Assembly: GCA_020347565.1 (NCBI GenBank)
Contig: CP070732.1
Coordinates: 861,216-925,215 of the forward strand
Source of the DNA: Methanobacteriota archaeon
Lineage (GTDB): Archaea; Thermoplasmatota; Thermoplasmata; UBA10834
Length of the DNA stretch: 64,000 nucleotides
Direction: 5' to 3'
Part shown: one piece after another, positions 6,761 through 30,538 of the stretch
Layout of the letters: each line of letters opens with the position of its first letter
Position numbering within the stretch: the first letter of the stretch is position 1
Position numbers and translations under genes: made by a program
Notes under the pieces: generated by a model
What the model was told of the DNA's origin: nothing
What the model saw: only the letters and a program-made list of their open reading frames with translations
Database searches by the model: none

Positions 6761-6866
6761 TTGCTGAGCGCACACACGAGGCATGAACCGGAGGGCCACA
6801 CAGGTAGTGGGATTTTTATGCGAGGTAATCCGTTCTCCCACCGTCTGCAAGAATGGATGGTTGATT

Positions 6867-8581: not shown

Positions 8582-9281
8582 CTACTCCGACGGCACCGCC
8601 TCGCTCGAGGACATCGTCACCGAGGCGCTCAGATGGCGGCTCGAGGCGATAGGTATCGTCGACCACGTGAGAGGCGACGCCGACTGGCTCGCCGACAGGC
8701 AGCGCCAGATCGACGAGCTCAGGGGGGAGCACGGGGACGAATTGGAGATATTCTCGGGCATAGAGGTGAAGGTGAGAGACGAGGAGGGGGCGCTGAACGT
8801 GCTCCCGCAGGCGACTGAGAAGGTGGATTTCGTGATTGCATCGTTCCACGGGGTCCCGAGGAGCGTCGAGGAGCGCATGGAAGGAGGAGACAGGGACGCG
8901 CTCGTCGACTGGTGGCACAGCTGCACACGCATTCTCTTGGACTGCGGGCACGACGCCCACATATTGGGGCACCCGGACAGGATACTGGTCGACCGAGCGC
9001 TCTCCGTCGGGTCGGCGCGGATGAAACGCCTTGTGGAGCAGGCGCTGGCGTCGCGCATGTTCCTCGAATGGAACCCTGCAGCGGCCTATCCCGTACAGCC
9101 TTTCGCGACCGCGCTGGCAGAGCGCGGCGCCCCAAACGTCACCTATGGCAGCGACGCACACTCGACATCGGAACTGACGGACGCGCTCCGCGCGAGGACC
9201 GACTACGAGGCGGGAATAGTCGAGCGCGGGAACCAGGCCTTCCTGTCCATCCTGAGGGAAGATCGCGGCGACCTGTCCTGA
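8559..9281 (+). CDS. PHP-domain (polymerase/histidinol-phosphatase) metal-dependent phosphoesterase
   Basis: The protein begins MDFHIHSDYSDG, the PHP motif 1, and contains further His/Asp motifs (IVDHVRG, SFHGVP, GHPDR). It overlaps the ATP-grasp 3' end by ~23 nt. Alternative starts are at 8538 and 8550. Confidence 0.7.
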   Translation: MDFHIHSDYSDGTASLEDIVTEALRWRLEAIGIVDHVRGDADWLADRQRQIDELRGEHGDELEIFSGIEVKVRDEEGALNVLPQATEKVDFVIASFHGVPRSVEERMEGGDRDALVDWWHSCTRILLDCGHDAHILGHPDRILVDRALSVGSARMKRLVEQALASRMFLEWNPAAAYPVQPFATALAERGAPNVTYGSDAHSTSELTDALRARTDYEAGIVERGNQAFLSILREDRGDLS

Positions 9282-9405
9282 AGAGGGGGCAAGGCACAGA
9301 TTAGGACATCGCCCGCACAGCGGCGGCCAACAGATTGATATGCAGGAAGAAGCCGTCACCGTTCCGTCGTCCGGAGATGTCCATCGAGGACGAATGGTGA
9401 ACGGA

Positions 9406-10974
9406 ATGAAGATCCTCGTCGCCGACGAGATATCCGAGACTGGAGTGCAGACGCTGAAGGCCGAGGGCTACGAAGTCGACGTGAAGACGGGCATGGACGA
9501 GGACGAGCTGTCGACCGTGATCGGCGGCTACGATGTGCTCATAGTCAGAAGCGCGACGAAGGCCACTCGAAAGGTGATAGAGGCATCGACCCTGAAGGTC
9601 ATAGGCCGCGCGGGCATTGGCGTCGACAACATCGACGTGGATGCCGCGACCGAGCGCGGAATACTCGTGATGAACGCGCCGTCCGGGAACGTGGTATCGA
9701 CGGCGGAGCTGACGATCGGGCTGATATTCGCCGTTGCCCGCAGGATAGCCGAGGCGGACGCCTCCCTGAGGAGGGGCGAATGGAAGCGCAAGGAGCTGAA
9801 GGGCGTCCAGGTATCCGGGAAGACCCTCGGCATAATAGGTCTCGGCAGGGTCGGAGCCGAAGTGGCGAAGCGCGCTGCGGCGCTGGGCATGACGGCCATC
9901 GCGTTCGACCCGCTCGTATCGCCCGAGGTCGGCGTGAAGCTGCACGTCAGACTCGTCGGCCTGGACAGGCTGCTCCGGGAATCGGACTTCGTGTCGATAC
10001 ACGCTCCGCTAACGCCTCAGACAAAGGATCTGATAGGCAGGGTCGAGCTCTCGAAGATGAAGAAGAGCGCCGTGCTCATCAACTGCGCCCGTGGCGGAGT
10101 CGTCAATGAGGACTCGCTTCATGACGCCCTATCGGAGAGGACCATCGCGGGCGCTGCCCTCGATGTATACTCGAAGGAGCCGCCCAAGGAGTCGCCTCTT
10201 CTGAAGCTGCCGAACATCGTGCTGACGCCCCACCTCGGCGCCTCGACCAAGGAGGCGCAGGAGGATGTCGGGGCGGAGATAGCCGAGCAGATCATCGCAT
10301 ATGTCGGGAGCAACGAGGTCAGAAACGCAATCAACCTTCCGGCCAAGCTCGACCCGGAGATAGTGCCGTTCATGCCGCTCGCCGAGAAGCTGGGCACGCT
10401 CATAGCCCAGCTTGGCCAGTGCTCCGCAGGCAAGGTCGAGATATCATGCCTTGGGGAGCTGGCCCAGAAGGACACGCGCATCGTGTCCGCTTCGGTCATG
10501 ACAGGCATGCTCAAGCCCATATCGGAGGAGCTCAACGTCAACTACATAAACGCGATCGAGATGGCCAGGGCAAGAGGGATAGAGGTCGTCTCCTCCTCGA
10601 GCGAGGAGGGGGGACGGTACAGGGACCTCATACGCGTCGTGCTGCACACGAACGGCGAGGCGACGTCCGTCGCTGGGACGCTCTTCGCGGACAAGGGCGC
10701 CAGGGTTGTCGAGATAAACGGAAGCGTCGTCGACATCGAGCCTGAGGGCAGCTTCCTGCTGATAGGACACGAGGACAAGCCCGGCATGATCGGCAGCGTG
10801 GGGACGATACTCGGAGACCACGACGTCAACATCGCGAGCATGGAGGTCGCCCGAAAGGTGGTGCGTGGACCTGCCACGATGATAATCGCCATCGATGAGG
10901 AGCTGGACCGCGAGGTACTCGACAAGGTGCGGTCGATCAGAGACCTCAAGAGCGCAACCTACATCAGATTGTAG
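9406..10974 (+). CDS. serA: D-3-phosphoglycerate dehydrogenase (type I, with C-terminal ACT domain)
   Basis: The protein begins MKILVADEISETG. It has the 2-hydroxyacid dehydrogenase NAD-binding motif GIIGLGRVG and the catalytic region ...NCARGGVV...TPHLGAST. An ASB+ACT C-terminus brings it to 523 aa. Confidence 0.85.
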   Translation: MKILVADEISETGVQTLKAEGYEVDVKTGMDEDELSTVIGGYDVLIVRSATKATRKVIEASTLKVIGRAGIGVDNIDVDAATERGILVMNAPSGNVVSTAELTIGLIFAVARRIAEADASLRRGEWKRKELKGVQVSGKTLGIIGLGRVGAEVAKRAAALGMTAIAFDPLVSPEVGVKLHVRLVGLDRLLRESDFVSIHAPLTPQTKDLIGRVELSKMKKSAVLINCARGGVVNEDSLHDALSERTIAGAALDVYSKEPPKESPLLKLPNIVLTPHLGASTKEAQEDVGAEIAEQIIAYVGSNEVRNAINLPAKLDPEIVPFMPLAEKLGTLIAQLGQCSAGKVEISCLGELAQKDTRIVSASVMTGMLKPISEELNVNYINAIEMARARGIEVVSSSSEEGGRYRDLIRVVLHTNGEATSVAGTLFADKGARVVEINGSVVDIEPEGSFLLIGHEDKPGMIGSVGTILGDHDVNIASMEVARKVVRGPATMIIAIDEELDREVLDKVRSIRDLKSATYIRL

Positions 10975-15969: not shown

Positions 15970-17088
15970 TTGCCCAAGAGGAAATCATCTGCAGAGGGGA
16001 AGCCCACCTTCGCCGTATTGGGGGCGGGACACGGAGGTCTCGCCATGGCGGGGCACCTCGCGCTCATGGGCTTTCCCACGCACCTGTGGAACCGGTCGAA
16101 GGAGAAGATCGACCACGTGGAGGACCGAGGCGGCATCGACGTCATGGGTGTGGTCGAGGGCTTCGGCAGGCTCGAGCTGGCCACGGCGGACATGAAGGAG
16201 GCGCTGAGCGGGGCGGACATCGTAATGATCGTCGTCCCGGCTTCCGGTCACAAGGACGTAGCCGAGAAGTGCGCGAGGCATCTCAAGCAGGGGCAGCACG
16301 TGGTGCTCAACCCGGGAAGGACTTTCGGCGCCCTGGAGTTCCTCCAGACGCTTCGGAACAAGGGTGTCAGGGGACCGTCCACCGTCTCCGAGGCGCAGAC
16401 CTTCATATACGTTTCGAGGCACACGGACTTCGCCAGCTCTCACATCATGCAGATCAAGAACTCGGTCGCGATGGCCACGATACCTGCGCACAGGACGCCG
16501 AAGGTGCTGAAGGTTGTTACCAGGGCGTTCCCCCAGTTCGTGCCTGCGAGCAACGTGCTGGAGACGAGCCTGGACAACGTCGGCGCGGTCTTCCATCCGA
16601 CCCTCACGCTGCTGAACGCCACGAGGATCGAGTCGACGCATGGCGACTTCGAATACTATCTGGAGGGCGTAACACCGTCGACCGCGAGGATCCTCGAGGC
16701 CGCTGACGCCGAGAGGGTGGCCCTTGGAACGGCGCTCGGCGTGAGGCTGCACACCGCCCGGGAGTGGCTCTACCTGTCCTACGACTCGCCCGGCAGAACG
16801 CTCTACGAGGCCATACAGGCCACACCCGGATACAAGGGCGTGCGGGCCCCGGCTACCCTGACGCACAGGTACATCCTCGAGGACGTCCCGATGAGCATAG
16901 TGCCGATGGTCTCCGTCGGCCGTCAGCTCGGTGTCGAGACGCCGACGCTCGCATCCCTCGTGAACCTGGCCTCGCTGATACACGACAACGATTTCTGGAA
17001 GTCCGGCCGTACGGCTGAGCGGGTGGGGCTGGCCGGAAGGTCGGTGAAGGACATCAGGCTCCTCGCCGTGGAGGGGGCGCGCTCATGA
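15970..17088 (+). CDS. Opine (octopine/nopaline) dehydrogenase-family NAD(P)-dependent oxidoreductase
   Basis: A TTG start is followed by an N-terminal KPTFAVLGAGHGGLAMAGHLALMGFPTHLWNRS Rossmann motif. The ~370-aa length and the C-terminal helical domain are typical of the opine-DH family (the same family as CntM/ODH). A strong GAGGGGGG Shine-Dalgarno lies 10 nt upstream. Confidence 0.65.
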   Translation: MPKRKSSAEGKPTFAVLGAGHGGLAMAGHLALMGFPTHLWNRSKEKIDHVEDRGGIDVMGVVEGFGRLELATADMKEALSGADIVMIVVPASGHKDVAEKCARHLKQGQHVVLNPGRTFGALEFLQTLRNKGVRGPSTVSEAQTFIYVSRHTDFASSHIMQIKNSVAMATIPAHRTPKVLKVVTRAFPQFVPASNVLETSLDNVGAVFHPTLTLLNATRIESTHGDFEYYLEGVTPSTARILEAADAERVALGTALGVRLHTAREWLYLSYDSPGRTLYEAIQATPGYKGVRAPATLTHRYILEDVPMSIVPMVSVGRQLGVETPTLASLVNLASLIHDNDFWKSGRTAERVGLAGRSVKDIRLLAVEGARS

Positions 17089-18743
17089 GGGTGCTTGCAG
17101 CATCCGTTGGCAACTGCGTGCACGTCGCGGGGGTGCAGGCGTTCCTCGACGTGGCCCGGTCTTTCGGCTACGAGACCGTGTTCCTCGGCCCCGCCATGCC
17201 GATCGACAAGCTCACAGGGGCGATAAAGCAGCACGAGCCCGACCTGGTAGCGCTCAGCTACAGACTCAGCGAGGAGAGCGCCAAGGCCGTGTTCGAAGAC
17301 CTGAGGAAGGCGCTCGACAGCAACCCGGACATCGCCGGGAAGAGGTTCCTGTTCGGCGGGACACCGCCCGTCGCCCGACTTGCGCGCGAGTCGGGCATGT
17401 TCGAAGCGGCTTTCGACGGTAGCGAGCCCTTGGAGGTGACGATGGCCGTCCTCAGGGGCAGCGCGGCCGCCCAGGAGGACAGGGTCATGGGCGATACGCT
17501 GATGACACGTCTGCAGACGAACCATCCCTTCCCGCTCATCAGACATCACTTCGGTCAGCCGGACCTTCAGGAGACCATCGACGGCGTGCGGAGGCTGGCT
17601 GAGAGCGGCGCCCTTGACGTCATATCTATCGCCCCTGACCAGAACGCCCAGGAGTCGTTCTTCCGCCCAGACGAGATGGATTCCTCGCTCGCGGGTGCCG
17701 GAGGGGTGCCTCTGAGATCGCAGGACGACCTTGAGGCCCTGTACCAGGCCGCGCAGACGGGCAACAAGCCGTTGCTCAGGTGCTACAGCGGCACGAGGGA
17801 TCTCATCAAATGGGGTGGGATGCTCAAGGAGACCATCAAGGTCGCGTGGGGCGCCGTCCCACTGACATGGTACAGCGAACTGGACAGCAGGTCGAAGCGC
17901 CCGTTGCTGGATGCGATCAAGGAGAACCAGAAGGCCATCAGATGGTATGCGAAGAACGACATCCCGGTGGAAGTGAACGAGTCGCACCAGTGGGCCCTCA
18001 GGAGATCCGGCGACACAGTCGAGCTCGCGACCGCGTATCTTGCGGCGCACAACGCCAAAGCGCTTGGCGTGAGGAACTACGTGTGCCAGTTCATGTTCGA
18101 CACACCGAGGGGAATCTCGCCGGCTATGGACCTCGCGAAGATGTTCGCCAAGCTTGACCTCGTCGAGTCGCTCTCCGACGTCAACTTCAACGTCATCAGG
18201 ATGGTCCGTTCAGGACTGTCGTCATTGTCACCAAAGCCCAACCTCGCCAAGGGACAGCTCGCGGCGTCGATATACTCCGCAATGGCGCTCAAGCCACACA
18301 TAGTCCACGTCGTGGGCTACTCAGAGGCCGACCATGTCGCCACCGCCGACGAGATAGTGGAGAGCTGCGAGCTCGCCAACGGTGTCATCAGGAAGGCTCT
18401 GCTGGGGGTTCCGACGCCCGAGACCGACCCCGCTGTGGCGGAGCGAAAGGCCCAGCTCCTGGCGGATGCCCGGTTCCTGATCGAGGCCATCAAACGCCTC
18501 GAACAGGTGAACACCCACGACCCCCTCATAAGGCCGGAGGTCATCGCGACGGCGATAAAGGAGGGAATCCTGGACGCCCCTGACCTGAGGGGCAGCAGGG
18601 TTGCGAGGGGACGGATCACGACTGCGATGGTCAACGGGGCCTGTGTCCCCGTCGACAGCGCCACCGGCAGGGCGCTATCCGAGAAGGAGAGGATCGACGA
18701 GATAGCCATAAGCGAGAAGGACTTGGACCTGGCGGAGATATAG
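17085..18743 (+). CDS. Glutamate-mutase-like fusion protein: N-terminal GlmS-like B12-binding Rossmann domain (variant C-x-H-x-x-G motif) plus ~420-aa C-terminal domain (possibly GlmE-like TIM barrel)
   Basis: The N-terminus RVLAASVGNCVHVAGVQAF...LGPAMP...PDLVALSYRL...FLFGGTPP aligns to the GlmS sequence IVLGVIGSDCHAVGNKIL...SSLYG...LLYVGGN as I recall it. The remainder has weak, order-consistent resemblance to GlmE, also judged from my memory of that sequence. The start overlaps the opine-DH stop (ATGA). Confidence 0.45.
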   Translation: MRVLAASVGNCVHVAGVQAFLDVARSFGYETVFLGPAMPIDKLTGAIKQHEPDLVALSYRLSEESAKAVFEDLRKALDSNPDIAGKRFLFGGTPPVARLARESGMFEAAFDGSEPLEVTMAVLRGSAAAQEDRVMGDTLMTRLQTNHPFPLIRHHFGQPDLQETIDGVRRLAESGALDVISIAPDQNAQESFFRPDEMDSSLAGAGGVPLRSQDDLEALYQAAQTGNKPLLRCYSGTRDLIKWGGMLKETIKVAWGAVPLTWYSELDSRSKRPLLDAIKENQKAIRWYAKNDIPVEVNESHQWALRRSGDTVELATAYLAAHNAKALGVRNYVCQFMFDTPRGISPAMDLAKMFAKLDLVESLSDVNFNVIRMVRSGLSSLSPKPNLAKGQLAASIYSAMALKPHIVHVVGYSEADHVATADEIVESCELANGVIRKALLGVPTPETDPAVAERKAQLLADARFLIEAIKRLEQVNTHDPLIRPEVIATAIKEGILDAPDLRGSRVARGRITTAMVNGACVPVDSATGRALSEKERIDEIAISEKDLDLAEI

Positions 18744-18775
18744 AGCCGTGGTCGTCTGACGGAGTTGCAGCTGAG

Positions 18776-20248
18776 ATGGAAGGAATAGCCGGTACGTACG
18801 GACACGAAGACTGTGCCCTGGTAGGCAGAATGCTGAGGAAGCTGAGGCATCGCGGGCCGGGCAGGAAGAGGATCCACGCCGACGACGGCCTCGTGCTCGG
18901 CGCGCGGGCGGCGGTCACGGATTCGGCCGTGAGGAACACCCCGATGGCGGAGAGGGACGGCGTTGTCGTCGCCAGCGACTCGTACATATTCAACAGGCAG
19001 GCGCTCCGAACGGCGTTCGCCCCCGAGGCGAGTGCCGCCGCGTCCGATGCCGAGCTCCTTCTGGGCATGTACGAGGACCTCGGGACCGACATGTTCGGAT
19101 ACATCGACGGCGCCTATGCCGTCGCCATCGCGGACGGACGGAAGACCGTGCTGGCCAGGGACAGGTACGGCATCAAGCCGCTCTACCTCTCGGGCGGCGT
19201 GAGGAGGGGTACCTTCTCGTCCGAGATGAAGTCGCAGCTGCTCGCCAAGCAGGACTTCATACCGTTCCCGCCAGGCAAGGTCATGGTCAAGGGCAAGGGC
19301 GTGACGCCTGTGAGACAGAAGACGACCTACGTCGCCCGAGTGGCCGGTGACGCCGGCGCGAAGGCGCTGAGGTCGACGCTGATGGGGGCTACCCAGGCGG
19401 CTCTCGAGGACGGTGACAGGGCGAACATACTCCTGAGCGGAGGCGTGGACAGCAGCGCTATCGCTGCTGCGGCGTCCTGCCTTACGGACGACATCGACAC
19501 CGTGTGCGTCGCCTACGAGGGTGGGACCGACGCGGACATGGCTAGGAAGGTCTCCGAAGAGCTGGGAACGGACCACAGGGAGAGGGAGTACGAGGAGGAC
19601 GAGATGCTCGACCTGCTGGACGAGGTCGTCTACTCGGCCGAGACTTTCGACTACCCGCTGGTGAGGAGCTGCATACCAAACTACATAGCAACCCACTCGT
19701 TCCCCGATAGGGACAGGATAACGCTGTGCGGCGAGGGGGGCGACGAAGTGTTCGCAGGGTACGACTACATGCGGGAGATCGCTGACGATGGCCGGCTGCG
19801 CCGCGAGAGGAAGCTCCTGCTCCGCGCAGGCCACCTGACCGGCTTCCACAGGGTCGACAGGATGACGTCGTCGGCGTCGCTCGACGGCAGGATGCCGATT
19901 ATGAGCAGGTCCGTCGTCGACCTAGGCCTTGGAATGAGCAGGAGCGCAATCCTCGGGAGTGACATCAGCGAGAGCAAGCTGGCGCTGAGGAAGGCGTTCG
20001 CCGACATGCTGCCCGATGAGGTCGTCACGAGGGAGAAGAAGCGCTTCAGCGACGGTGCGGGCTCCCTCACAGCGCTCGTCAGGAGGGCAGAGAGCTTGAT
20101 ATCGGACGCCGAGTTCGACAGGGAGCGCACGGCGTTGCCTGGGGACAGGATACGTACGAAGGAAGAGCTTCTGTATTACAGGACCTTCGCTAAGCACTTC
20201 GACTCGCCGAGCGCGACCAGAGCCGTTGGCTTCACGCCGAGGCCTTGA
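18776..20248 (+). CDS. Asparagine synthetase (AsnB)-family protein with degenerate N-terminal glutaminase domain (Cys2 replaced by Glu)
   Basis: The N-terminus is MEGIAG...LRHRGPG..., against canonical MCGI(A/F)G...HRGPD. The PP-loop ILLSGGVDSS is intact. Length is 490 aa. Confidence 0.75.
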   Translation: MEGIAGTYGHEDCALVGRMLRKLRHRGPGRKRIHADDGLVLGARAAVTDSAVRNTPMAERDGVVVASDSYIFNRQALRTAFAPEASAAASDAELLLGMYEDLGTDMFGYIDGAYAVAIADGRKTVLARDRYGIKPLYLSGGVRRGTFSSEMKSQLLAKQDFIPFPPGKVMVKGKGVTPVRQKTTYVARVAGDAGAKALRSTLMGATQAALEDGDRANILLSGGVDSSAIAAAASCLTDDIDTVCVAYEGGTDADMARKVSEELGTDHREREYEEDEMLDLLDEVVYSAETFDYPLVRSCIPNYIATHSFPDRDRITLCGEGGDEVFAGYDYMREIADDGRLRRERKLLLRAGHLTGFHRVDRMTSSASLDGRMPIMSRSVVDLGLGMSRSAILGSDISESKLALRKAFADMLPDEVVTREKKRFSDGAGSLTALVRRAESLISDAEFDRERTALPGDRIRTKEELLYYRTFAKHFDSPSATRAVGFTPRP

Positions 20249-20336: not shown

Positions 20337-21257
20337 TTGAAGATATCGAAGAACGTCGCTTATGTCCTGATGGGGCTGGCGGCGCTTGCATGGGCTACGT
20401 CGGGCACGCTCACCGTGCTCGCCATAGACGAAGGGGCGACGGCGAACGTCATAGCCCTGTACTCGGAGATATTCAGCGTTGCCATGTTCTTCACCGCAAT
20501 ACTAATCATAGACCGACGCGCCTTCATGATTCGCCGGGCGGACTTCATCCCGTTCCTGCTGTTCAGCACGGTGACGGGGGCGCTTTTCTCGGTGGCATGG
20601 TACCACTGCATCGACCTCACTTCGGTGACTACCGCTGTTGTACTGCTGTGCTCGTATCCTAGCATAGTCACAGTGGCCTCGATATTCCTCCTCGGTGAGA
20701 GGATGACTGCCGCGAAGGCGGTTGCTCTGCCGACGACGTTCATCGGATGCGTCTTCGTTGCCGAGGCTTACGACGTCGAGGCGATTCGTGTCAACGCGCT
20801 CGGTATCGCGCTCGGCGTCTTCACCGCGTTCTGCGCCGCCGCGTACTACATCTGGGGCAAGAAGTTCCTGAAGCTGTACTCGCCGTATACCGTCGCGCTG
20901 TACTTCTCCGGCCTCATGCTGCCCGCGCTGGTGATACTGACCAACCCTGCGAAGTCGCTCCTCCCCAGCCTGTCGCCAACCGCCTGGCTGATCGTATTCC
21001 TCATAGGGCTCATACCCTGCACTGTCGGGTTCTTCATATCGATGGTCGCCCTTAAGCGCATAGAGGCCAGCAAGGCCAGCATCGTGGCCAGTCTAGAGCC
21101 GGTGATGGCTGTCGCGCTGGCGGTCATCATAGTGTCCGAGGCGGTCGGCGGGCTCCAGATGGTCGGTGTCGCGCTCGTCATCGTGGGCATACTGACCCTG
21201 CGCTTGGTGAGACGAGAGGATGAGGACGCCCCGGTCGAGGCGCCGGCGAAGAGATAA
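20337..21257 (+). CDS. EamA/DMT-superfamily transporter (10 predicted TM helices)
   Basis: The protein has two EamA-type repeats of hydrophobic helices. A TTG start has GAGAGGG 9 nt upstream. An alternative ATG lies at 20370. Confidence 0.75.
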   Translation: MKISKNVAYVLMGLAALAWATSGTLTVLAIDEGATANVIALYSEIFSVAMFFTAILIIDRRAFMIRRADFIPFLLFSTVTGALFSVAWYHCIDLTSVTTAVVLLCSYPSIVTVASIFLLGERMTAAKAVALPTTFIGCVFVAEAYDVEAIRVNALGIALGVFTAFCAAAYYIWGKKFLKLYSPYTVALYFSGLMLPALVILTNPAKSLLPSLSPTAWLIVFLIGLIPCTVGFFISMVALKRIEASKASIVASLEPVMAVALAVIIVSEAVGGLQMVGVALVIVGILTLRLVRREDEDAPVEAPAKR

Positions 21258-21330
21258 TCTCTTCGACGCGTCGGAAGGGTGGAAGGCAAACGGCATATAC
21301 GCATGCCGGCATCAGGTCAAGCAGAGTTCG

Positions 21331-22083
21331 ATGATCGTCACGCGCGTGCCTAGCGGCATTCCGGGCCTGGACACGGCGCTCCAGGGAGGCATACCCGTCA
21401 ACTCCGCACTGGCCCTCAGGGGCGAGGCGTCGAACTACTGCGAGGCTTTTCAGCAGCAGTTCGTGGTTGAGGGGCTGAAGCACGGTTCTCCAGCGATATA
21501 CTGCTGCACTTCCCGCCCGGTCGCGACCATAATAAGGAGCATGAGGCACCAAGGGTTCGACGTCAAGGAGTACATCGTCAACGACGAGCTGGTCTTCCTC
21601 GACTGCTACTCCGCCCACAAGCGAACTTCGGTCGCGGGCGTCGACAGCGACGTTCAGAGGAAGATAATAACCGTCTCGGACGCCGACGACGAGAAGATGC
21701 TCCAGAACGGTCTCGCCACGGCCGTCGAGAGGGTGCCAAACATCAAGGGCGTCAGGGCGGTGTGCGAGAACGTTCCAGGATCGCTCACGAATAAATCGCC
21801 GACCGAGATGATGAGATGGGGCAGGAGATCGTTCGGCGACCTGCGCGCCTTCCAGACGATCGTGCTCCACACGTTCCCCCACGGCGTACGCGAGGAGCTG
21901 TTCACGATGATGGCTTCCGACTTCGACGGCCTGTTCGAGCTCAAGGCGGAGAGAGGGCTCGATCGCGTGAGGTACTACCTCAGCATACCGAAAATGAGGA
22001 TGACCGTTCTGCCGCCTAAGATGCACGAACTCGACATCAACAACGGCGTCGTCACGCTGAAGACGATACAGAAGATCACATGA
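21331..22083 (+). CDS. KaiC/RecA-superfamily-like protein with degenerate Walker A (pseudo-ATPase)
   Basis: The N-terminus has the VPSGIPGLDTALQGGIPVNSALALRGEASNYCEAF motif. The KaiC-type GIPGLD..L.GG.P motif is kept, but the P-loop GxxGxGK(T/S) is replaced by RGEASNY. Confidence 0.5.
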   Translation: MIVTRVPSGIPGLDTALQGGIPVNSALALRGEASNYCEAFQQQFVVEGLKHGSPAIYCCTSRPVATIIRSMRHQGFDVKEYIVNDELVFLDCYSAHKRTSVAGVDSDVQRKIITVSDADDEKMLQNGLATAVERVPNIKGVRAVCENVPGSLTNKSPTEMMRWGRRSFGDLRAFQTIVLHTFPHGVREELFTMMASDFDGLFELKAERGLDRVRYYLSIPKMRMTVLPPKMHELDINNGVVTLKTIQKIT

Positions 22084-23879: not shown

Positions 23880-24518
23880 TCAGCCGCGGGCCCCCTTGAT
23901 CAGCGTCCTGGACACCACACCGCCCACCACGGTCAGGTCCTCCGTGGGCAGTATCTTCGCAGCGCTCGCGTCGTACAGAATGCTCGCTGAGGCAGACACC
24001 TCGGAGTCACCGAGCCAGAGTATCACGGCCACTGGCAGCCTGTCGAAGAAACGGACCTTCACGCCGACTGTACCCACCTCCAACGGTTCAGCGTTCAGCT
24101 TGGCCGCCACACGCCTCAGGCGCTCCGGGCTGAGCCCGAACTCCTCGACCAGTGGGTCAATGGTCCTCGCCTTGAAGGCCGGGTAATACAGCGCCCCGCC
24201 TGACAGCTCGCGGAAGGAGATGAGGCGGTCGGTCAGCTGCGTCTTGGTCGCCCCGGCGAGGTAGTGCAGTATCAACACCTGAAGGAACCTGGGGACCTCG
24301 GGGCCACCCAAATCGCTGTACGTGACCGCCTTCCCGCTCAGGTCAACGAAGCACTCGTCGTTGAGCATGGCAAGGCGGAGAACTGAAGGTCTGCCGTCGA
24401 CGACCGCGCCGAGGTCCTCTGCCAGCTGCCGAGGGTCCAGTTCTTCCAGGGCGGCCCACGCGAGCTCAAGCGCGTCCGTCAAGGGCGCCTTTCTGCCCGA
24501 TCCGACCCGCACCGTCAT
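23880..24518 (-). CDS. Conserved hypothetical protein co-transcribed with acsE (possibly DUF3786-family, acs-cluster associated)
   Basis: The 212-aa protein has a start that overlaps the acsE stop (ATGA). The family assignment comes from my recollection that DUF3786 genes accompany acs operons. It was not verified. Confidence 0.45.
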   Translation of the reverse strand: MTVRVGSGRKAPLTDALELAWAALEELDPRQLAEDLGAVVDGRPSVLRLAMLNDECFVDLSGKAVTYSDLGGPEVPRFLQVLILHYLAGATKTQLTDRLISFRELSGGALYYPAFKARTIDPLVEEFGLSPERLRRVAAKLNAEPLEVGTVGVKVRFFDRLPVAVILWLGDSEVSASASILYDASAAKILPTEDLTVVGGVVSRTLIKGARG

Positions 24519-25291
24519 GCCCTCAGGAACGAAGGCGCGTAGAGCTTCCTGTTGAGGAGCACCTCCGCCGCCTTCACCACCTTCATGAGCTCGGCGTCGT
24601 TAGGGTCCACGATCGCCGCATCTAGGCCCCTCCCGAGCAGCATGGCGAGATATGTCCGGTTCAGCAGCGACCGCTCCTCCGCGCCGCTCGAGACGTTGCT
24701 GAGACCGACTACAGTCTTGGGCGACGGGTCGTTGAGCGTTCTGAAGGATGTTATCGCGTCGCATACGTCGGGGCACTGGCTCTGGGCGGCCGATATCGGC
24801 AGCACAACCGGGTCGAGGTACACCTTCTCCGGAGGTATGCCCTGGTCCATGGCCGTCGCGAGCAACAACATGGCAATCTCCGTACGCCCCTCCGCGGAGT
24901 TCGGTATGCCCTTCTCATCGATGGTGAGACAGACTATCTCGGCGTTATGCTCCTTCGCCAGTGGGAAGAACTTCTCCATGCGCTTCTGCTCTGCCGTGGT
25001 CGAGTTGATCAGGGGCTCGCGGTTGCACGCAGACAGCCCGGCCGTCTGCGTCTTGAGCCCGGGTGAGTCTATGCAAAGCTTGACGTCGGCCACGTCCTGG
25101 ATCGTCTTGACGAGCCACGCGATGGCCTCCTGGGCGTCGTCCCTTCCCGGACCGGTGTTGACGTCCAGCACGTCCGCGCCGCCCTCGATTTGCTCGTTCG
25201 CAAGTCCCTGGATGTACTTCTCGTCGCGATCGTCTATGGCCTTCGCGACCTGTGGGAACTGACCGTTGATCCTCTCGCCTATCACTATCAT
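24515..25291 (-). CDS. acsE: Methyltetrahydrofolate:corrinoid/iron-sulfur protein Co-methyltransferase (pterin-binding, DHPS-like)
   Basis: The protein reads MIVIGERINGQF...GADVLDVN...LCIDSP...INSTTAEQ...FPLAKEH...DPVVLPISAAQ...VGLSNVS...RTYLAMLLGRGLDAAIVDP. This is co-linear with Moorella AcsE (MLIIGERINGMF...LDLNVG...LCLDST...NSTNAERE...). Length is 258 aa. Confidence 0.9.
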   Translation of the reverse strand: MIVIGERINGQFPQVAKAIDDRDEKYIQGLANEQIEGGADVLDVNTGPGRDDAQEAIAWLVKTIQDVADVKLCIDSPGLKTQTAGLSACNREPLINSTTAEQKRMEKFFPLAKEHNAEIVCLTIDEKGIPNSAEGRTEIAMLLLATAMDQGIPPEKVYLDPVVLPISAAQSQCPDVCDAITSFRTLNDPSPKTVVGLSNVSSGAEERSLLNRTYLAMLLGRGLDAAIVDPNDAELMKVVKAAEVLLNRKLYAPSFLRA

Positions 25292-25427
25292 CTCTCAACC
25301 CCCGCCAATGGTTGTTTGAAGGCCATACACCGTTAGTCTGATATCAATCATTCGGCTCTCCGCGAAGCGCCTGGGACAGCACAACAGTTAATACCGATGC
25401 TAATCGATTGCTGGACGCTGGTCTCGG

Positions 25428-27338
25428 ATGTCTGGTGAGGAGGAGGGGACCCTTTGCACGGTGAGTTTCTCACCTGACGGCGTCGCCGTCGAGATGGTCA
25501 GAGGCACTACCATCCTCGAGGCCTGCAGAGCCGCTGGCATAGCCATAGACGCTGTCTGCGGAGGCACCGGCAAATGCGGCAGATGCAAGGTAAGGCCGAA
25601 GGGGCTTTTCGACCCCGGAGACACCTCCGCCCTCGCCGAGGAAGAACGGGAGTCCGGCGTGGTCCTGGCGTGCGAGACGTTGGTGACCGGCGACCTCGAA
25701 GTGGAGGTGCTGCCGCGCTCAAGGATACGCGAGCATCAAATCCTGACCAGGACGCTGGAGACGCCGGTCGTCAAGCTGTCGCCCTGGGTCAGGAAGGTTC
25801 TGCTGGAGCTCCCGAAGGCCACCCTCTACGACAACACGGCGGATTTCGAGAGGGTCCTGCGAGCGCTAGGCGATAGGAACCTCGAGATGCCCATAGTCAC
25901 GCTCCGCAACATGTCGAACGTCCTGCGGGAAGGCGGGTGGACCGTGACGGCGACGGTGGCCGACCTGAAGAGCAGAGGCGAGATAACGCGTCTCGAGCCC
26001 GGGGACAAGTGCGGCTGCCTCCTGGGGGTCGCGATCGACATCGGCACGACGACGGTCGTCGGGCAGCTTATCGACCTGCTGACGGGCGATGTGCTCGCCA
26101 GCGCATCCGAGTACAACAGGCAGATATCCAAGGGCGAGGACGTCATCGCGAGGATGATGTACGGCGAGGAGAACGGCGTTGGGGAGCTGACGGACCTCGC
26201 GAGAGAGACTGTCAACTCGGTCATCGGCAGGCTGCTGGAGGACACGTCGAAGGAGCGGGAGTGTCCCGTCACCGCCGTCGACGTCGTCGGTGCGGCCATC
26301 GCCGGCAACACGATAATGACGCACTTCTTCGTAGGCGTCGATACGCGCTTCATACGGCTCGAGCCGTACGTTCCCGTAGCCCATCACATGCCGCCGCGCA
26401 GCGGCCATGACCTCGGCATGGAGGCTCACCCATCCAGCGATGTGCTCCTGTTCCCGTCGAGGGCGGGCTACCTCGGCGGAGATGTCGTGGCAGACGTGCT
26501 CGCGAGCGGCATTCACAGGAGCGACGACCTCGCGATGCTGATAGACGTGGGCACCAACGGCGAAATCGTCCTCGGGTGCAGGGAGTGGCTCGTGTCCTGC
26601 GCGTGCTCCGCCGGGCCTGCGTTCGAGGGCGGGGAGGTGTCGTCCGGCATGAGGGCCATGCATGGCGCGATAGACAGCATACGCGTCAACCACGACTTCG
26701 CAACCTCGTACCATGTAATAGGCGATGAGCGGCCGAACGGCATCTGCGGGTCCGGGCTAATAGACCTGATCGCGGAGATGTACGAGAACGGCGTGATAGA
26801 CCGCAAAGCTCGGATACAGCGGCTCCAGACGGACAGGGTAAGGGAGGGCGAGGAAGGGCTGGAGTACGTCGTCGAGTTCCAAGGGAGCCTCGGCGAGGGC
26901 GCGACCGGTGACCTCGTCATAACCGACGCCGACCTGCAGAACGTCCTCAGGACGAAGGCCGCGATCTTCGGCGCAGCGACGGTCCTGCTCAGGAAGATGA
27001 GCGAAGACCTGGACGGCATCGACACGTTTGTGATCGCCGGGGGGTTCGGCAACCACCTCGACATAGACCGCGCCGTCTCTATCGGTATGTTCCCTGACAT
27101 ACCAAGGGACAAGTACAGGTTCATAGGCAACGGGGCCCTCGAGGGCGCGAGGCTCGCTCTGCTCTCAGAGGAGATGCGGAAGGACATGGTGGAGATATTC
27201 GACCAGATGACGTACATCGAGCTGAGCGTGGACAACGACTTCTACGACGAGTTCACCTCCTCGATGTTCATACCGCACACGGATCTCGCGAAGTTCCCCA
27301 GCTTCAAAGACAGAGGGTCACAGGAGACGGCGAGATGA
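25428..27338 (+). CDS. Reductive activator of corrinoid protein (RACo/AcsV): N-terminal [2Fe-2S] ferredoxin + ASKHA ATPase (DUF4445)
   Basis: The N-terminus carries plant-type ferredoxin cysteines (CGGTGKCGRCKV...C). The ~630-aa length matches RACo. The ATPase-like middle and C-terminus and the location inside the acs cluster also fit. Confidence 0.8.
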   Translation: MSGEEEGTLCTVSFSPDGVAVEMVRGTTILEACRAAGIAIDAVCGGTGKCGRCKVRPKGLFDPGDTSALAEEERESGVVLACETLVTGDLEVEVLPRSRIREHQILTRTLETPVVKLSPWVRKVLLELPKATLYDNTADFERVLRALGDRNLEMPIVTLRNMSNVLREGGWTVTATVADLKSRGEITRLEPGDKCGCLLGVAIDIGTTTVVGQLIDLLTGDVLASASEYNRQISKGEDVIARMMYGEENGVGELTDLARETVNSVIGRLLEDTSKERECPVTAVDVVGAAIAGNTIMTHFFVGVDTRFIRLEPYVPVAHHMPPRSGHDLGMEAHPSSDVLLFPSRAGYLGGDVVADVLASGIHRSDDLAMLIDVGTNGEIVLGCREWLVSCACSAGPAFEGGEVSSGMRAMHGAIDSIRVNHDFATSYHVIGDERPNGICGSGLIDLIAEMYENGVIDRKARIQRLQTDRVREGEEGLEYVVEFQGSLGEGATGDLVITDADLQNVLRTKAAIFGAATVLLRKMSEDLDGIDTFVIAGGFGNHLDIDRAVSIGMFPDIPRDKYRFIGNGALEGARLALLSEEMRKDMVEIFDQMTYIELSVDNDFYDEFTSSMFIPHTDLAKFPSFKDRGSQETAR

Positions 27339-28093
27339 ACTCGTTCACCATAGCGGTAGCAGGCAAGGGCGGCGTAGGCAAGACGACCTTCGCCGCGCTT
27401 GCGATAAGGCACCTTCATCACATCACGGGTGAGGTGATATTGGCCGTCGACGCCGATCCCAACGCCAACCTGCACGCGAAGCTCGGGACATCGCCGAGGA
27501 GGACCATCGGCGACATCAGGGAGGAGCTGCTCGTTGAGGCGGACCAGCTGCCTTCAGGAGTTACGAAGCAGGAGCATGTCGACTACCAGATACGGCTGGC
27601 GCTGGCTGAGGGCGACGGGTTCGACCTCCTGACGATGGGGAGGCAGGAGGGGCCTGGATGCTACTGCTATGTGAACAACATCCTCAGGACCTTCGTTGAC
27701 TCCCTATCCGAGAGATACGCTTACGTTGTAATAGACAACGAGGCGGGGATGGAGCACCTCAGCAGGAGGACGACGAGGACCTCGGACGTCCTGTTCGTCG
27801 TCTCCGACGCGTCGAAAGCAGCGGCGGACTCCGCGGTCAGAATCGCGGCGTTGGCAAAGGAAATGGATCTGGGCATAGGTAGGACCGCCCTGGTAAGGAA
27901 CATGCTCCCCCCCGACTCGGACGGGCAGGATGCGCCAGCGGGCTTCGATGCCGCATACGCCGTGACGGCCTCCGCGGCCATACGCTCCGGGAGCATGCGG
28001 AGCGAGTCCCTCCTCGACATACCCCAGCACGACCCCACATATCAGGACATATCGAAGGCCTTGGACGAGGAGAGAAAGCTGGCAAGGCAATGA
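27335..28093 (+). CDS. cooC: CO dehydrogenase/ACS nickel-insertion accessory ATPase CooC/AcsF (MinD/ParA family)
   Basis: The protein begins MNSFTIAVAGKGGVGKTT and has the LAVDADPNANL and CYCYVNNIL (CxC) motifs of CooC. The ATGA overlaps the RACo stop. Confidence 0.85.
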   Translation: MNSFTIAVAGKGGVGKTTFAALAIRHLHHITGEVILAVDADPNANLHAKLGTSPRRTIGDIREELLVEADQLPSGVTKQEHVDYQIRLALAEGDGFDLLTMGRQEGPGCYCYVNNILRTFVDSLSERYAYVVIDNEAGMEHLSRRTTRTSDVLFVVSDASKAAADSAVRIAALAKEMDLGIGRTALVRNMLPPDSDGQDAPAGFDAAYAVTASAAIRSGSMRSESLLDIPQHDPTYQDISKALDEERKLARQ

Positions 28094-28236
28094 CGCAGAC
28101 GTCGATCCGAACAGAAGTGACGTCGCGAGCATCCTGACGCTCGTCCGGCAGCGGGGACGGGCTGACTGGGCGCCTCAAGGTCCCGCAGGGGGCAATGGAA
28201 ACGCACGCACCAACGGTTTCCGTGCCGTGAACGGCT

Positions 28237-29562
28237 TCATGCCAGAGACTTCATCATCTTCGGCAGCCCGGACGACTCCCTCGGCCCGACGGTCACCTTG
28301 AGGTCGGTCAGCTCGTTCAGCTTGCCGCTCATTCTGCTAACCATGCCCGGGATGATGATCTCGTTCCTGTTGCTCTTCTCCTTGACCTTGAAGTCGTCCA
28401 CCGCCTTGGCTACCGACTCCGGCGTCATCTTGCCAGCGGCGAAAGCCGTCATGACGGACTGTCCCTCGGTATCCACCACGAGTAGCCACGCGGGCACCTT
28501 GCTCTTCTCTATGTCCGCACGCACGGTGAAGTACGTCAGCGAGAAGTTCGTGGTGAACATGACAGGCGACGACTCCGTCGGCTCGCCGACTGGGTACAGC
28601 CCTGGCTTGACCTGGATGGGCACTTGCGGGTCGGTGTATATGTTCTGTCTCAGGGCGAGGAGCGGATACACGAAATCCCTCGGCATCTCCTCCATCATGA
28701 TGGCGGATGCGTACTTCATCACGCCCAGTGAGGCATTCATCTTGTCCGCGGTCGACGACCCGAGCACCGCAATCGTCGGGAAGCCGAGCGGCCTGAATTT
28801 GCTCTTTATCGCGGCCCGGCGTATCACCGTCATGTTCTCAAGCATCTTCCCGGAGCTGTCGATCGGCGGCTCGAGGAGCACGTCGCTCAACCCGGCCTTC
28901 TTGGCTCGCTCCGACAGCTCGACGAGTTCGTCCAGGCCGGCGACACCACCTACCACGAGCGGGAGCGACCGGCCCTTCGCGAGTTCCGCCATCGCATCGA
29001 AGTTCGCGCCTGTCGCGCGGTAGAGCAACGGCTTCTTGTCGGCGCACGCATCCGCCGCCTTCGCCGCCAGCGCAGCGTCCTCGCACATCAGCACGATGGG
29101 AAGCTCCTTGCCTGCCGCGGCCTTGACGGCCTCGAGGTAGTCCTCCTCGCTTCCGGACGAGTGCCGCAGGGCCACGGAGTCCACGCGCAGGATCTGACCC
29201 ACCCGCTCGAACGCCGCGGAATGGGCGTCATCGACCCTGGTCCGCATCGCCTCGAGTCCTGCGGAATCGTCGGCTATCAGGCCCAGCACGGTGGGGTTGT
29301 AGAAGGTCTTGTCGTGTCTGAACAGCTGCGTCTCGTCCCCCATCTTGACCGCCAGCTCGCCCGAGCCGATCGTGACGGAGCGGATCGGCGGAGCACCGCT
29401 CTCCTCGAGCTGAGCCTTCGCCTCATCGCTGACGGACGGACAGGCCTCGAGGGACACTTTCTGGTTGGCCAGCTGCATAGCGAATGCGAGGCAGGTTGGA
29501 AACTTGCACTCTCCGCAGTTCGTCTTCGGGAGCAGTTTGTAGATCTCCATCGCAGTCGGCAT
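28237..29562 (-). CDS. acsC: Corrinoid iron-sulfur protein large subunit (AcsC/CdhE)
   Basis: The N-terminus is MEIYKLLPKTNCGECKFPTCLAFAMQLA, the [4Fe-4S] motif of the CFeSP large subunit. A TIM-barrel and B12-binding C-terminus follow. A GGAGG Shine-Dalgarno lies inside the acsD 3' end, with a 1-nt gap. Confidence 0.88.
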   Translation of the reverse strand: MPTAMEIYKLLPKTNCGECKFPTCLAFAMQLANQKVSLEACPSVSDEAKAQLEESGAPPIRSVTIGSGELAVKMGDETQLFRHDKTFYNPTVLGLIADDSAGLEAMRTRVDDAHSAAFERVGQILRVDSVALRHSSGSEEDYLEAVKAAAGKELPIVLMCEDAALAAKAADACADKKPLLYRATGANFDAMAELAKGRSLPLVVGGVAGLDELVELSERAKKAGLSDVLLEPPIDSSGKMLENMTVIRRAAIKSKFRPLGFPTIAVLGSSTADKMNASLGVMKYASAIMMEEMPRDFVYPLLALRQNIYTDPQVPIQVKPGLYPVGEPTESSPVMFTTNFSLTYFTVRADIEKSKVPAWLLVVDTEGQSVMTAFAAGKMTPESVAKAVDDFKVKEKSNRNEIIIPGMVSRMSGKLNELTDLKVTVGPRESSGLPKMMKSLA

Positions 29563-29563
29563 C

Positions 29564-30517
29564 TCACTCGCCTCCTGCCAGGGATTTGAGCGTATCCCTC
29601 AGCATCTTCACCGATTCGGGATGGCGCATCACCACGATGCCCGCCCCGGCTACCGCCGCCGAGAGAGCTGTGATCGTCTCCCAGTATATCCCGCGCATCT
29701 TCACGTCGCCGTGCTCCGGATTCTCCTCCAACGCCTCCGGCACGGTCCACGCGCACGAGCAGTCGCATATCATGGGCATCTGCAGCACGGGATCGCCAGA
29801 CAGCGCCCCGAGTCGCAGGCGTTCGATGTTCGAGTAGGAGTATTCCAATCCCATGCCGAGCGGCGCCATGAGCGGGTCCATGAGGATGTTCTCCGGTTTC
29901 ATGCCGAAGTCGAGCAGCAGGATGTTCATCTGCTTCGCAAGGTTGATGTCCAGGTTGGAGAACGCCACGATACCGTGGCCGTTCGCCATCGACGCGGCAG
30001 CGAGAGACTTGTATGCCTTCTCCTCGGCGAGCCCGAGAAACAGCCGCTCGCCCTTGGCAACGTTGGACACCTTCTCCATGACCTTCGCGTCCTTCTCCTC
30101 GAACCCGCACCCGTAAACTGCGAGCGGTAAAGCGGTCGTCTGAAGCACCTTCGACACGAGCGCCTCGAGCTCCTCAGCGGGCCTGTCCTCCTCCTCCGGA
30201 TTTGCGGATGCAAGCTTGAGGACGCACATATCCGCGCCCCACTCGGCCTCGCACTTCTTGGCCCATCCTGCTGGGTCGGCAAGCGACGGCCCCATCGTCT
30301 CCTGAAGACGCTCAGGCACCATCCGCATCGTGTCAACGACGTCCATCGCGACCAGCGGCATGGGCCCCGACTCCCCCTCGAACAGATGGAAGGGAAGGCC
30401 GTTCGACCCTCCCGCGACGAGCTTGGCGCGCCTGGTTCCCCCGTATTCCTTGGTCGCGCCTATCGCGACCTCCTTGATCCGTCCTCCAAACTTCTCCTTT
30501 GGCACTTCAAATCCCAA
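29564..30517 (-). CDS. acsD: Corrinoid iron-sulfur protein small subunit (AcsD/CdhD)
   Basis: The 317-aa TIM-barrel protein sits immediately upstream of acsC and downstream of the CODH/ACS gene. The start is TTG with AGGGGGA upstream. Confidence 0.85.
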   Translation of the reverse strand: MGFEVPKEKFGGRIKEVAIGATKEYGGTRRAKLVAGGSNGLPFHLFEGESGPMPLVAMDVVDTMRMVPERLQETMGPSLADPAGWAKKCEAEWGADMCVLKLASANPEEEDRPAEELEALVSKVLQTTALPLAVYGCGFEEKDAKVMEKVSNVAKGERLFLGLAEEKAYKSLAAASMANGHGIVAFSNLDINLAKQMNILLLDFGMKPENILMDPLMAPLGMGLEYSYSNIERLRLGALSGDPVLQMPMICDCSCAWTVPEALEENPEHGDVKMRGIYWETITALSAAVAGAGIVVMRHPESVKMLRDTLKSLAGGE

Positions 30518-30538
30518 GTCAGAATCCCCCTGCTAACC

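Follow-up and report, generated by a model that had tools for sequence, protein, structure and literature searches.

Organization of the AsnB-type gene

The window studied here is a stretch of 64,000 nucleotides (the whole of the DNA analysed) from contig CP070732.1 of a Methanobacteriota archaeon belonging to the Thermoplasmata. It contains a gene of the asparagine synthetase B (AsnB) type, which lies in an operon together with genes for an opine dehydrogenase (ODH) and a B12-dependent mutase-like protein. The product of this gene is predicted to belong to the AsnB family, with a glutaminase site that is dead and an adenylating domain whose PP-loop is intact. The gene and the parts of its product that matter for this assignment are:

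18776-20248, plus strand: AsnB-type amide synthetase gene with an inactivated glutaminase domain, 490 aa, ATG start
18776-19345, plus strand: degenerate Ntn-glutaminase-like domain (aa 1-190), with Glu2 for Cys and D68-S69-Y70 at 18977-18985 (alignment with 1ct9)
19436-19453, plus strand: PP-loop SGGVDS (S221-S226), the ATP pyrophosphatase motif (sequence reading)
19727-19747, plus strand: C318-G-E320-G-G-D323-E324, equivalent to S346-G-E348-G-S-D351-E352 of AS-B, the acidic pocket and general base for acyl-adenylate formation

The translated open reading frame (ORF) starts with MEGIAGTYGHED, and its second codon, GAA at 18779-18781, encodes Glu2, which aligns with the nucleophile Cys1 of Escherichia coli AsnB (AS-B, 1ct9; E = 1.3e-47, HMMER). 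The nearest in-frame stop upstream is a TGA at 18758-18760; the five codons that separate it from the ATG (GGA GTT GCA GCT GAG) include no start codon and therefore no N-terminal extension could bring a Cys. A homologue search over 5.8 billion proteins returned about 103 clusters with at least 43% identity to the window protein, all of them from metagenome-assembled genomes (MAGs) of Thermoplasmatota, after which the matches drop sharply to about 35%. The window protein itself is identical to the record "hypothetical protein JSV90_04105". Family residue counts were made on 82 full-length cluster representatives. Position 2 is occupied by E in 43 of them, Q in 29, H in 4, L in 2 and S in 1, and never by C, so that the loss of the Cys is a family trait and not a sequencing error. 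The absence of the catalytic Cys, which the first-pass annotation had reported from the start MEGIAG, is thus confirmed, and the two objections that it had raised itself, a different in-frame start or an error at codon 2, are excluded by the stop codon 18 nt upstream and by the 82 relatives.

The remainder of the glutaminase site is altered unevenly. The segment AHERLSIVD of 1ct9 corresponds to GARAAVTD in the window protein, in which the His is gone and the following strand has diverged. The change from LGHRRL to LGARAA, described in the first-pass annotation as a second altered glutaminase motif, is roughly right, but the key Arg (Arg49 in AsnB, R44 here) is retained in the window protein and in 57 of the 82 relatives. 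Asn74-Gly75-Glu76, which form the oxyanion hole and glutamine site, are replaced by Asp68-Ser69-Tyr70, of which D68 is invariant in the family and S69 and Y70 are found in 73/82 and 69/82 representatives; Asp98 is retained as D91. The glutaminase-like domain is maintained and not in decay, since its mean pairwise identity within the family is 49%, against 60% for the C-terminal domain. It is also confidently folded in the AF2 model (pLDDT 92, pTM 0.92).

The synthetase domain, on the other hand, carries what adenylation requires. The intact PP-loop claimed by the first-pass annotation is indeed there at residues 221-226, with S221, G222, G223, D225 and S226 invariant in the family, and E320, D323, E324, K401 and K421 correspond to E348, D351, E352, K429 and K449 of AS-B. 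Residues of this domain including E320, D323, K401 and K421 are kept in 80-82 of the 82 representatives. Pfam matched Asn_synthase (PF00733; 9.9e-44, 150.8 bits, above the gathering score of 21), GATase_7 (2.7e-18) and GATase_6. Compared with a glutamine-hydrolysing AsnB (EC 6.3.5.4), the protein has the PP-loop and the adenylation residues, lacks Cys1 and the full glutamine site, and scores below the NCBIfam equivalog cut-offs (NF006949, 310.7 bits versus 499; TIGR01536, 227.3 versus 267).

Comparison with AsnB, beta-lactam synthetase and other relatives

AsnB homologues devoid of the Cys are in themselves a known theme, represented by beta-lactam synthetase (BLS), CarA and the lasso cyclases. 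Like the window protein, BLS (1jgt) and CarA (1q15) derive from AsnB, have no N-terminal Cys, retain a non-catalytic N-domain and adenylate a carboxylate. The window protein is nevertheless AsnB-like and not BLS-like, as judged from both sequence and predicted fold. Its family profile E-values were 1.6e-114 for AsnB (1ct9), about 1e-92 for human asparagine synthetase (ASNS, 6gq3), 1e-54 for TsnB9, 8.7e-50 for BLS and 5e-34 for CarA, and the TM scores of the AF2 model were 0.88 (AS-B), 0.86 (ASNS), 0.76 (TsnB9), 0.75 (BLS) and 0.72 (CarA). In a single-sequence comparison BLS was matched at E = 3.8e-23. The first-pass annotation had suggested an examination of the residues that distinguish BLS and CarA from AsnB, and this speaks against the cyclases. 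Their dyad consists of Tyr348/Glu382 in BLS and Tyr345/Glu380 in CarA; in a pairwise alignment Tyr348 falls on Glu320 of the window protein, which is the state of AS-B (Glu348), and the Tyr half of the dyad is accordingly missing. The position of Glu382 falls on Arg359 in a pairwise HMMER alignment, a less certain correspondence. A cyclase of the BLS/CarA type was rejected on the Tyr to Glu320 exchange and on the ranking in sequence and fold. There are, moreover, no clavulanate or carbapenem genes nearby, and active-glutaminase orthologues exist.

Other identities within the family were also discarded. The models for lasso (NF033535, 91.6 bits versus 525) and macrolactam (NF033561, 47.4 versus 300) cyclases scored far under their NCBIfam cut-offs, and no lasso precursor or protease genes were noticed among the neighbours of the AsnB-type gene, where small ORFs were not searched. 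The PEP-CTERM amidotransferase is excluded by a score far under the NCBIfam cut-off, and AsnO of N-acetylglutaminylglutamine amide (NAGGN) synthesis by 122 bits against a cut-off of 570 (TIGR03104). AsnO is nonetheless the nearest functional analogy for the role proposed below, as an AsnB-family enzyme that amidates an osmolyte. It differs in retaining Cys1 and using glutamine, and its partner is the Ngg peptide synthase and not an ODH with a B12 mutase.

With AsnB and ASNS the window protein shares the two-domain fold, the PP-loop SGGxDS and the equivalents of Glu348, Asp351, Glu352, Lys429 and Lys449. Besides the glutaminase residues it differs from them in being about 60 residues shorter at the C-terminus, in its place in an ODH/B12-mutase operon and at several positions of the synthetase domain: the TT of the E. 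coli and human enzymes (ETYDVTTIRAS, before Arg324) is an invariant Pro-Leu in the family, Lys376 is Leu, and the position of Asp384 (ASNS Asp400) is Gly356. Ordinary long-type AsnBs, taken as outgroup, are also variable at these positions, and the sole positions that set the operon-linked clade apart from them, weakly, are T355 and F447.

In human ASNS, Glu364, Asp367 and Glu368 form the acidic pocket that holds the amino group of the substrate, with Asp400 as a fourth position (PMC6748925). Of these, the window protein retains Glu364, Asp367 and Glu368 as E320, D323 and E324, with Gly356 at the Asp400 position, a pattern which makes an aspartate-like substrate bearing an amino group likely. 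As far as residues can tell, it is compatible with L-aspartate, 3-methylaspartate or an N-carboxyalkyl derivative alike. The N-carboxyalkyl amino acid proposed in the first-pass annotation is a possible substrate.

The dehydrogenase, the B12 protein and the carrier

The other genes of the operon and the gene that follows it are:

15970-17088, plus strand: opine dehydrogenase of the CENDH type, first gene of the operon (Pfam Octopine_DH, 3.9e-49)
17085-18743, plus strand: fused B12-dependent mutase-like protein of 552 aa (Pfam B12-binding, 2e-08), its start overlapping the ODH stop (ATGA)
20337-21257, plus strand: EamA/DMT-family carrier (Pfam EamA, 9.5e-31), 88 nt downstream of the AsnB-type gene

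The ODH and B12 genes overlap by 4 nt, and a gap of 32 nt separates the latter from the AsnB-type gene. The ODH start given is the most upstream candidate, a TTG at 15970, and the true start may lie a few codons downstream. Its product matches the Arthrobacter N-(1-D-carboxyethyl)-L-norvaline dehydrogenase (CENDH, PDB 1bg6) at E = 1.1e-78 over residues 12-363. The first-pass annotation was therefore right that a genuine ODH is present, and the ODH gene belongs to the operon, but it is not directly adjacent to the AsnB-type gene: the 552-aa B12 gene, which had been overlooked, stands between them.

The B12 protein consists of an N-terminal cobalamin-binding Rossmann domain and a C-terminal TIM barrel. 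In place of the usual DxHxxG it has the motif CxHxxG (C11/H13/G16), which is invariant in 27 diverse relatives, and both the order of the S-E fusion and the length of 552 aa are fixed across bacteria and archaea (at least 50% identity). With the AF2 model (pLDDT 88) as query, Foldseek placed glutamate mutase E (1cb7_B) first for the barrel (E = 4.7e-16, TMt 0.66, 14% identity), followed by ornithine and lysine aminomutases and methylmalonyl-CoA mutase (MCM). Pfam Met_asp_mut_E was not detected in the window protein and is matched weakly (2e-05) by its relative P0212. Glutamate mutase GlmS/GlmE thus shares with the B12 protein the barrel and a B12-binding Rossmann domain with the motif His, and differs from it in that here S and E are fused in one chain, in the CxHxxG motif and in the low identity. 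A corrinoid protein of methyltransferases and a pyridoxal phosphate-dependent aminomutase were both rejected, given this fold ranking, the lack of an invariant Lys in the B12 domain and the lack of a helical cap before it.

The EamA carrier scored 91 bits with TIGR00950 (carboxylate/amino acid/amine transporter), below the cut-off, and follows the operon only in the closest relatives (also in L001, L005, L009, L011 and L016, by the numbers of the loci compared). From its position it is possible that it exports or imports the product of the pathway. The carrier gene is overlapped at its end, by 38 nt, by the start of a gene for a KaiC-like ATPase (21220-22083), which in L001 likewise comes after the carrier.

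Elsewhere in the window, a Wood-Ljungdahl/acetyl-CoA-synthase block (23880-34675) encodes a DUF3786 protein, a pterin-binding methyltransferase, the corrinoid activase RACo, a CooC-like ATPase, two CdhD-family corrinoid Fe-S subunits and a 1378-aa fused carbon monoxide dehydrogenase-acetyl-CoA synthase (CODH-ACS; Prismane + CdhC + ACS_CODH_B_C). Since the window encodes CODH/ACS, the corrinoid Fe-S protein, the methyltransferase and RACo, the organism already relies on corrinoids. Three tightly packed genes at 6783-9281, for a PIG-L-type deacetylase, a Ter-operon-type ATP-grasp enzyme with a PylC-like N-domain and a PHP-domain phosphoesterase, possibly form a small biosynthetic cassette.

Distribution of the module

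The B12-protein alignment was scanned against one genome per GTDB species, and at least 578 species genomes of bacteria and archaea were found with confirmed B12-protein loci. The archaea with the module are Thermoplasmata, Thorarchaeota and Thermococci, and the bacteria include Bacteroidales, Ignavibacteria, Aminicenantes, Armatimonadota, Chloroflexi and Planctomycetia; among cultured carriers are Caldanaerobacter subterraneus, Thermoanaerobacter thermocopriae, Tepidanaerobacter acetatoxydans, Fervidicola ferrireducens and Rosettibacter primus. Gene neighbourhoods were analysed in 84 loci, with counts made over 82. In 78 of these the B12 gene is immediately preceded by the ODH gene, and in 39 an AsnB-type gene adjoins the pair, mostly directly downstream; no further gene family is conserved across the 82 loci. 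The ODH-B12 pair is for this reason regarded as the core of the module, which the AsnB-type gene often joins as a third member. For at least 40 of the AsnB-type clusters from Thermoplasmatota, the longest contig is shared with a B12-protein cluster.

Some loci depart from the common arrangement. In L087 (333-8449) genes for a MarR protein, an opine dehydrogenase and an Opp/SBP_bac_5 ABC importer are followed by the Cys-less AsnB-type gene P0105 and there is no B12 gene, so the pairing of ODH and AsnB-type protein also exists without the mutase. In a Thermococci MAG (L047) the B12 and AsnB-type genes are separated by a gene resembling that of D-glutamate cyclase (6989-8074; GLUCM-like_C, 5e-69), which hints that a glutamate-derived or cyclic intermediate may take part. 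In a Thermoplasmata locus (L004, 595-1721) the ODH appears to be split into gene calls of 281 aa and 60 aa, which suggests a frameshift or an assembly error.

A literature search found no publication on the AsnB-type subfamily, on its series of competent and dead glutaminases or on an operon of ODH, B12 mutase and AsnB-type protein, and the operon could represent a genuinely new pathway.

Glutaminase loss and the use of ammonia

Most of the operon-linked AsnB-type proteins have no Cys at position 2, where A, S, E, Q, K, P, T or I is found instead, and many of the bacterial ones also have deletions in the N-domain. Three, however, from a Chloroflexi (L020), an Ignavibacteriaceae (L049) and T. 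thermocopriae (L078), keep Cys1 together with Arg49, Asn74, Gly75, Glu76 and Asp98. These pass the AsnB equivalog cut-off of 499 bits with 532, 579 and 642 bits, respectively, whereas the Cys-less proteins fall stepwise from 483 (L069) through 445 (L019), 387 (L026), 352 (L023), 345 (L047) and 316 (L034) to 311 for the window protein.

In a simple neighbour-joining (NJ) tree of the synthetase domain with 200 bootstraps, the Cys-bearing proteins branch basally in the operon-linked group. The proteins of T. thermocopriae (L078 7723-9183; Cys) and C. subterraneus (L069 7715-9196; no Cys, with R49W, N74D and D98L) form a sister pair in 200/200 bootstraps, and their genes have the same surroundings. 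The simplest reading of these sequences is that the operon originally encoded an AsnB-type amidotransferase dependent on glutamine, and that at least two losses of the glutaminase followed. The fact that operon-linked orthologues keep a complete glutaminase site and pass the AsnB cut-off makes ammonia the probable nucleophile, which the Cys-less forms would use directly. AsnB itself can accept NH4+ instead of glutamine, and human ASNS has been assayed with ammonium chloride (PMC6748925). Ammonia as nucleophile in turn argues against an intramolecular reaction. The first-pass annotation had left the choice between direct use of ammonia and intramolecular amide formation as in BLS and CarA; it is the former that agrees with the operon-linked relatives, and the latter is disfavoured also by Glu320 at the Tyr348 position and by the closeness to AsnB.

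Riboswitches and stress-related neighbours

In bacteria the operon is under riboswitch control. At Rfam gathering level (38 bits for the c-di-AMP riboswitch, RF00379), c-di-AMP riboswitches scoring 84-118 bits were found in 10 bacterial loci, on the operon strand and 90-220 nt upstream of the first gene, and Li+/Na+ (nhaA-I) riboswitches in two loci:

L069 4654-4786, L078 4659-4790, L042 4595-4769 and L053 4663-4809, operon strand: c-di-AMP riboswitch before ODH
L080 4598-4765, L072 3737-3900, L070 4487-4700, L076 4659-4790 and L083 4609-4767, operon strand: c-di-AMP riboswitch before ODH
L019 250-382, operon strand: c-di-AMP riboswitch before the AsnB-type gene, which is first in the operon
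L017 5799-5858: nhaA-I riboswitch before the B12 gene
L023 4766-4819 and 9459-9511: nhaA-I riboswitches before ODH and, separately, before the AsnB-type gene

In L069 the ODH start is preceded by a near-consensus promoter, then the aptamer and then a terminator hairpin; the AsnB-type gene of L023 has ahead of it a perfect TTGACA-17-TATAAT promoter, again followed by aptamer and terminator. According to the papers on these riboswitch classes, c-di-AMP riboswitches act as OFF switches of genes for osmotic shock and the cell wall, Li+ is the ion to which nhaA-I RNAs respond, with Na+ for some variants, and an osmolyte gene, that of lysine 2,3-aminomutase, is under the joint control of Na+ and c-di-AMP riboswitches (PMC9337991, PMC9646797). 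No mention of an ODH/B12-mutase operon, with or without the AsnB-type gene, as a target of c-di-AMP riboswitches was found in a literature search.

The accessory genes are of a similar kind. Genes for MscS-type channels lie in the operon or directly after it (after the B12 gene) in seven bacterial loci (L028, L032, L039, L052, L062, L082 and L017), and in L023 genes for a CBS protein and a Na+/H+ exchanger are inserted between the B12 and AsnB-type genes. A Na+/H+ exchanger is also found near the operon in the distinct Thermoplasmata loci L002 (duplicated by L003), L006 and L010 and in the Chloroflexi locus L020. Twelve Thermoplasmata loci (L002-L004, L006-L013 and L016), but not the window, have near the ODH a gene combining a winged helix (HVO_A0114-like) with CBS domains; it is divergent and upstream of the ODH where the orientation was checked (L002/L003 and L011, 3928-4761, minus strand), and its product could sense ionic strength or adenine nucleotides and thereby control the archaeal operon. 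In the Thermoplasmata relatives of the window the AsnB-type gene is followed by MFS and EamA carriers. Taken together, the riboswitches and accessory genes point to a link of the module with salt or osmotic stress.

Genes of cell-wall synthesis are also met at some loci. A D-Ala-D-Ala ligase gene lies divergently upstream of the operon, on the opposite strand, in six Firmicutes loci (L051, L059, L070, L072, L080 and L083). Downstream of the operon L069 has a D-Ala-D-Ala carboxypeptidase gene (9219-10472), and the syntenic ORF of L078 (9262-10533) is given the same identity by synteny alone.

Proposed function and alternatives

Our tentative preference, held somewhat short of an even chance, is that the window protein is an ammonia-dependent carboxamide synthetase of the AsnB type which acts on aspartate or on an aspartate-like compound supplied by the ODH and the B12 mutase, in the synthesis of a small solute induced by stress. 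The glutaminase domain would be catalytically dead and kept as a structural module alone. The C-terminal domain, with the PP-loop, Glu320, Asp323, Lys401 and Lys421, would adenylate the carboxylate of the substrate, and free ammonia would attack the acyl-AMP to give the amide, AMP and PPi. The enzyme would share one pathway with the CENDH-type ODH and the fused adenosylcobalamin mutase related to glutamate mutase, and this pathway would most likely be the salt- or osmotic-stress-induced synthesis of a small organic solute. As a guess at the order of the steps, the mutase might convert glutamate to 3-methylaspartate, the dehydrogenase might condense this reductively with pyruvate to an N-(1-carboxyethyl) opine, and the AsnB-type enzyme might then amidate the beta-carboxylate, removing one negative charge, before export or uptake of the product through the EamA carrier. 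This route from glutamate to an opine beta-amide is proposed because it fits the three enzyme types and because amidation serves as a neutralisation of carboxylates in osmolytes.

Several observations weigh against this proposal. The amidated opine solute has no prior report, and next to half of the ODH-B12 pairs an AsnB-type gene is missing. The monophyly of the operon-linked AsnB-type genes, Cys-bearing ones included, was recovered in 115 of 200 bootstraps of the simple NJ tree. As T355 and F447 alone set the clade apart, L-aspartate may still be the substrate. Riboswitches were found only in Firmicutes-type, Armatimonadota, Planctomycetia and Desantisbacteria loci; Rfam was negative for them in a further 25 loci from other bacterial phyla, for the most part Bacteroidota, Aminicenantes and Ignavibacteria. 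Over the 64-kb window Rfam found one tRNA only and no riboswitch, and neither an MscS nor an antiporter gene adjoins the operon there; the link to stress is consequently extrapolated to this archaeon from bacterial and other archaeal loci. Control by c-di-AMP riboswitches, moreover, extends to cell-wall genes (PMC9337991).

The plainest alternative is an ammonia-dependent L-asparagine synthetase (L-Asp + ATP + NH3 to L-Asn) without any special substrate, serving housekeeping or feeding the pathway. AsnB and ASNS are the nearest characterised enzymes, Cys-bearing members in the same gene context pass the NCBI AsnB cut-off, hardly any signature residues distinguish the clade and the acidic pocket for the amino group is retained. 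We nevertheless consider it unlikely, as the window protein falls short of the AsnB models (311 versus 499 bits, and 227 versus 267 with TIGR01536) and has the TT and Asp384 replaced by a family-invariant P-L and Gly. Furthermore, synteny with ODH and B12 mutase is conserved across two domains of life, and neither a Li+/Na+ riboswitch of its own (L023) nor the first place in a c-di-AMP-repressed operon (L019) would be expected of a housekeeping gene. Somewhat less likely again is an amide ligase in which an organic amine is coupled to the adenylated carboxylate. Amino acids, polyamines and the secondary amine of an opine would be candidates, and the larger molecule built in this way could be, for example, an opine-type metallophore exported by the EamA or MFS carriers that stand behind the gene in Thermoplasmata. 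Loss of the glutaminase would leave the tunnel and the N-domain free for another nucleophile, and the N-domain is well conserved, with its 49% mean identity and invariant D68. Locus L087, with its Cys-less protein, ODH and importer and no B12 gene, would also suit such a ligase, and its arrangement recalls the staphylopine and pseudopaline systems. The orthologues with a complete glutaminase site imply NH3, however; no nicotianamine-synthase-like gene is present, the c-di-AMP and Na+/Li+ riboswitches are not regulation of the metal type, and the MscS and Na+/H+ antiporter neighbours indicate osmotic and not metal stress.

Very improbable, in our opinion, is a cyclase of the BLS or carbapenam-synthetase type that closes a lactam ring within the N-carboxyalkyl amino acid made by the ODH. 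It would account for the missing Cys1, the match to BLS and the nearness of the opine secondary amine to a carboxylate, as in carboxyethylarginine, but the Tyr of the Tyr-Glu dyad is Glu as in AS-B, sequence and fold are far nearer AsnB, the macrolactam and lasso models give 47 versus 300 and 92 versus 525 bits, and Cys-bearing orthologues with a competent glutaminase in the same operon would make no sense for an intramolecular reaction. The least credible of the alternatives, to which we attach hardly any weight, is that the bacterial operon serves cell-wall remodelling by amidation of peptidoglycan precursors (AsnB/LtsA-like) and that the archaeal copy has shifted in function or is a decaying remnant. 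AsnB homologues amidate meso-diaminopimelate in some bacteria, and the D-Ala-D-Ala ligase and carboxypeptidase genes near certain Firmicutes operons would fit, as would the cell-wall targets of c-di-AMP riboswitches (PMC9337991). The three genes are, however, conserved in Thermoplasmata, Thorarchaeota and Thermococci, all of which lack peptidoglycan, and the archaeal proteins, whose catalytic residues are invariant in 80-82 of 82 representatives, are clearly subject to purifying selection.

Significance

If the proposal of an ammonia-dependent carboxamide synthetase is carried to the whole module, ODH, the CxHxxG B12 mutase and the mostly Cys-less AsnB-type protein might together be an unrecognised B12-dependent route from glutamate to an amidated opine-type compatible solute, present in more than 500 species of anaerobes and controlled in bacteria by c-di-AMP and Li+/Na+ riboswitches, with the window gene as the charge-neutralising final enzyme. 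In this full form the idea is the more doubtful one, and we advance it as a conjecture. That a single gene context harbours orthologues with a competent and with a dead glutaminase provides a natural series in which to follow an amidotransferase losing this activity and turning ammonia-dependent. If the link of the module with salt and osmotic stress holds, a function would be assigned to an orphan target of the c-di-AMP and Li+/Na+ riboswitches, and an additional adenosylcobalamin mutase and a previously unseen osmolyte would be added to the biology of anaerobes.

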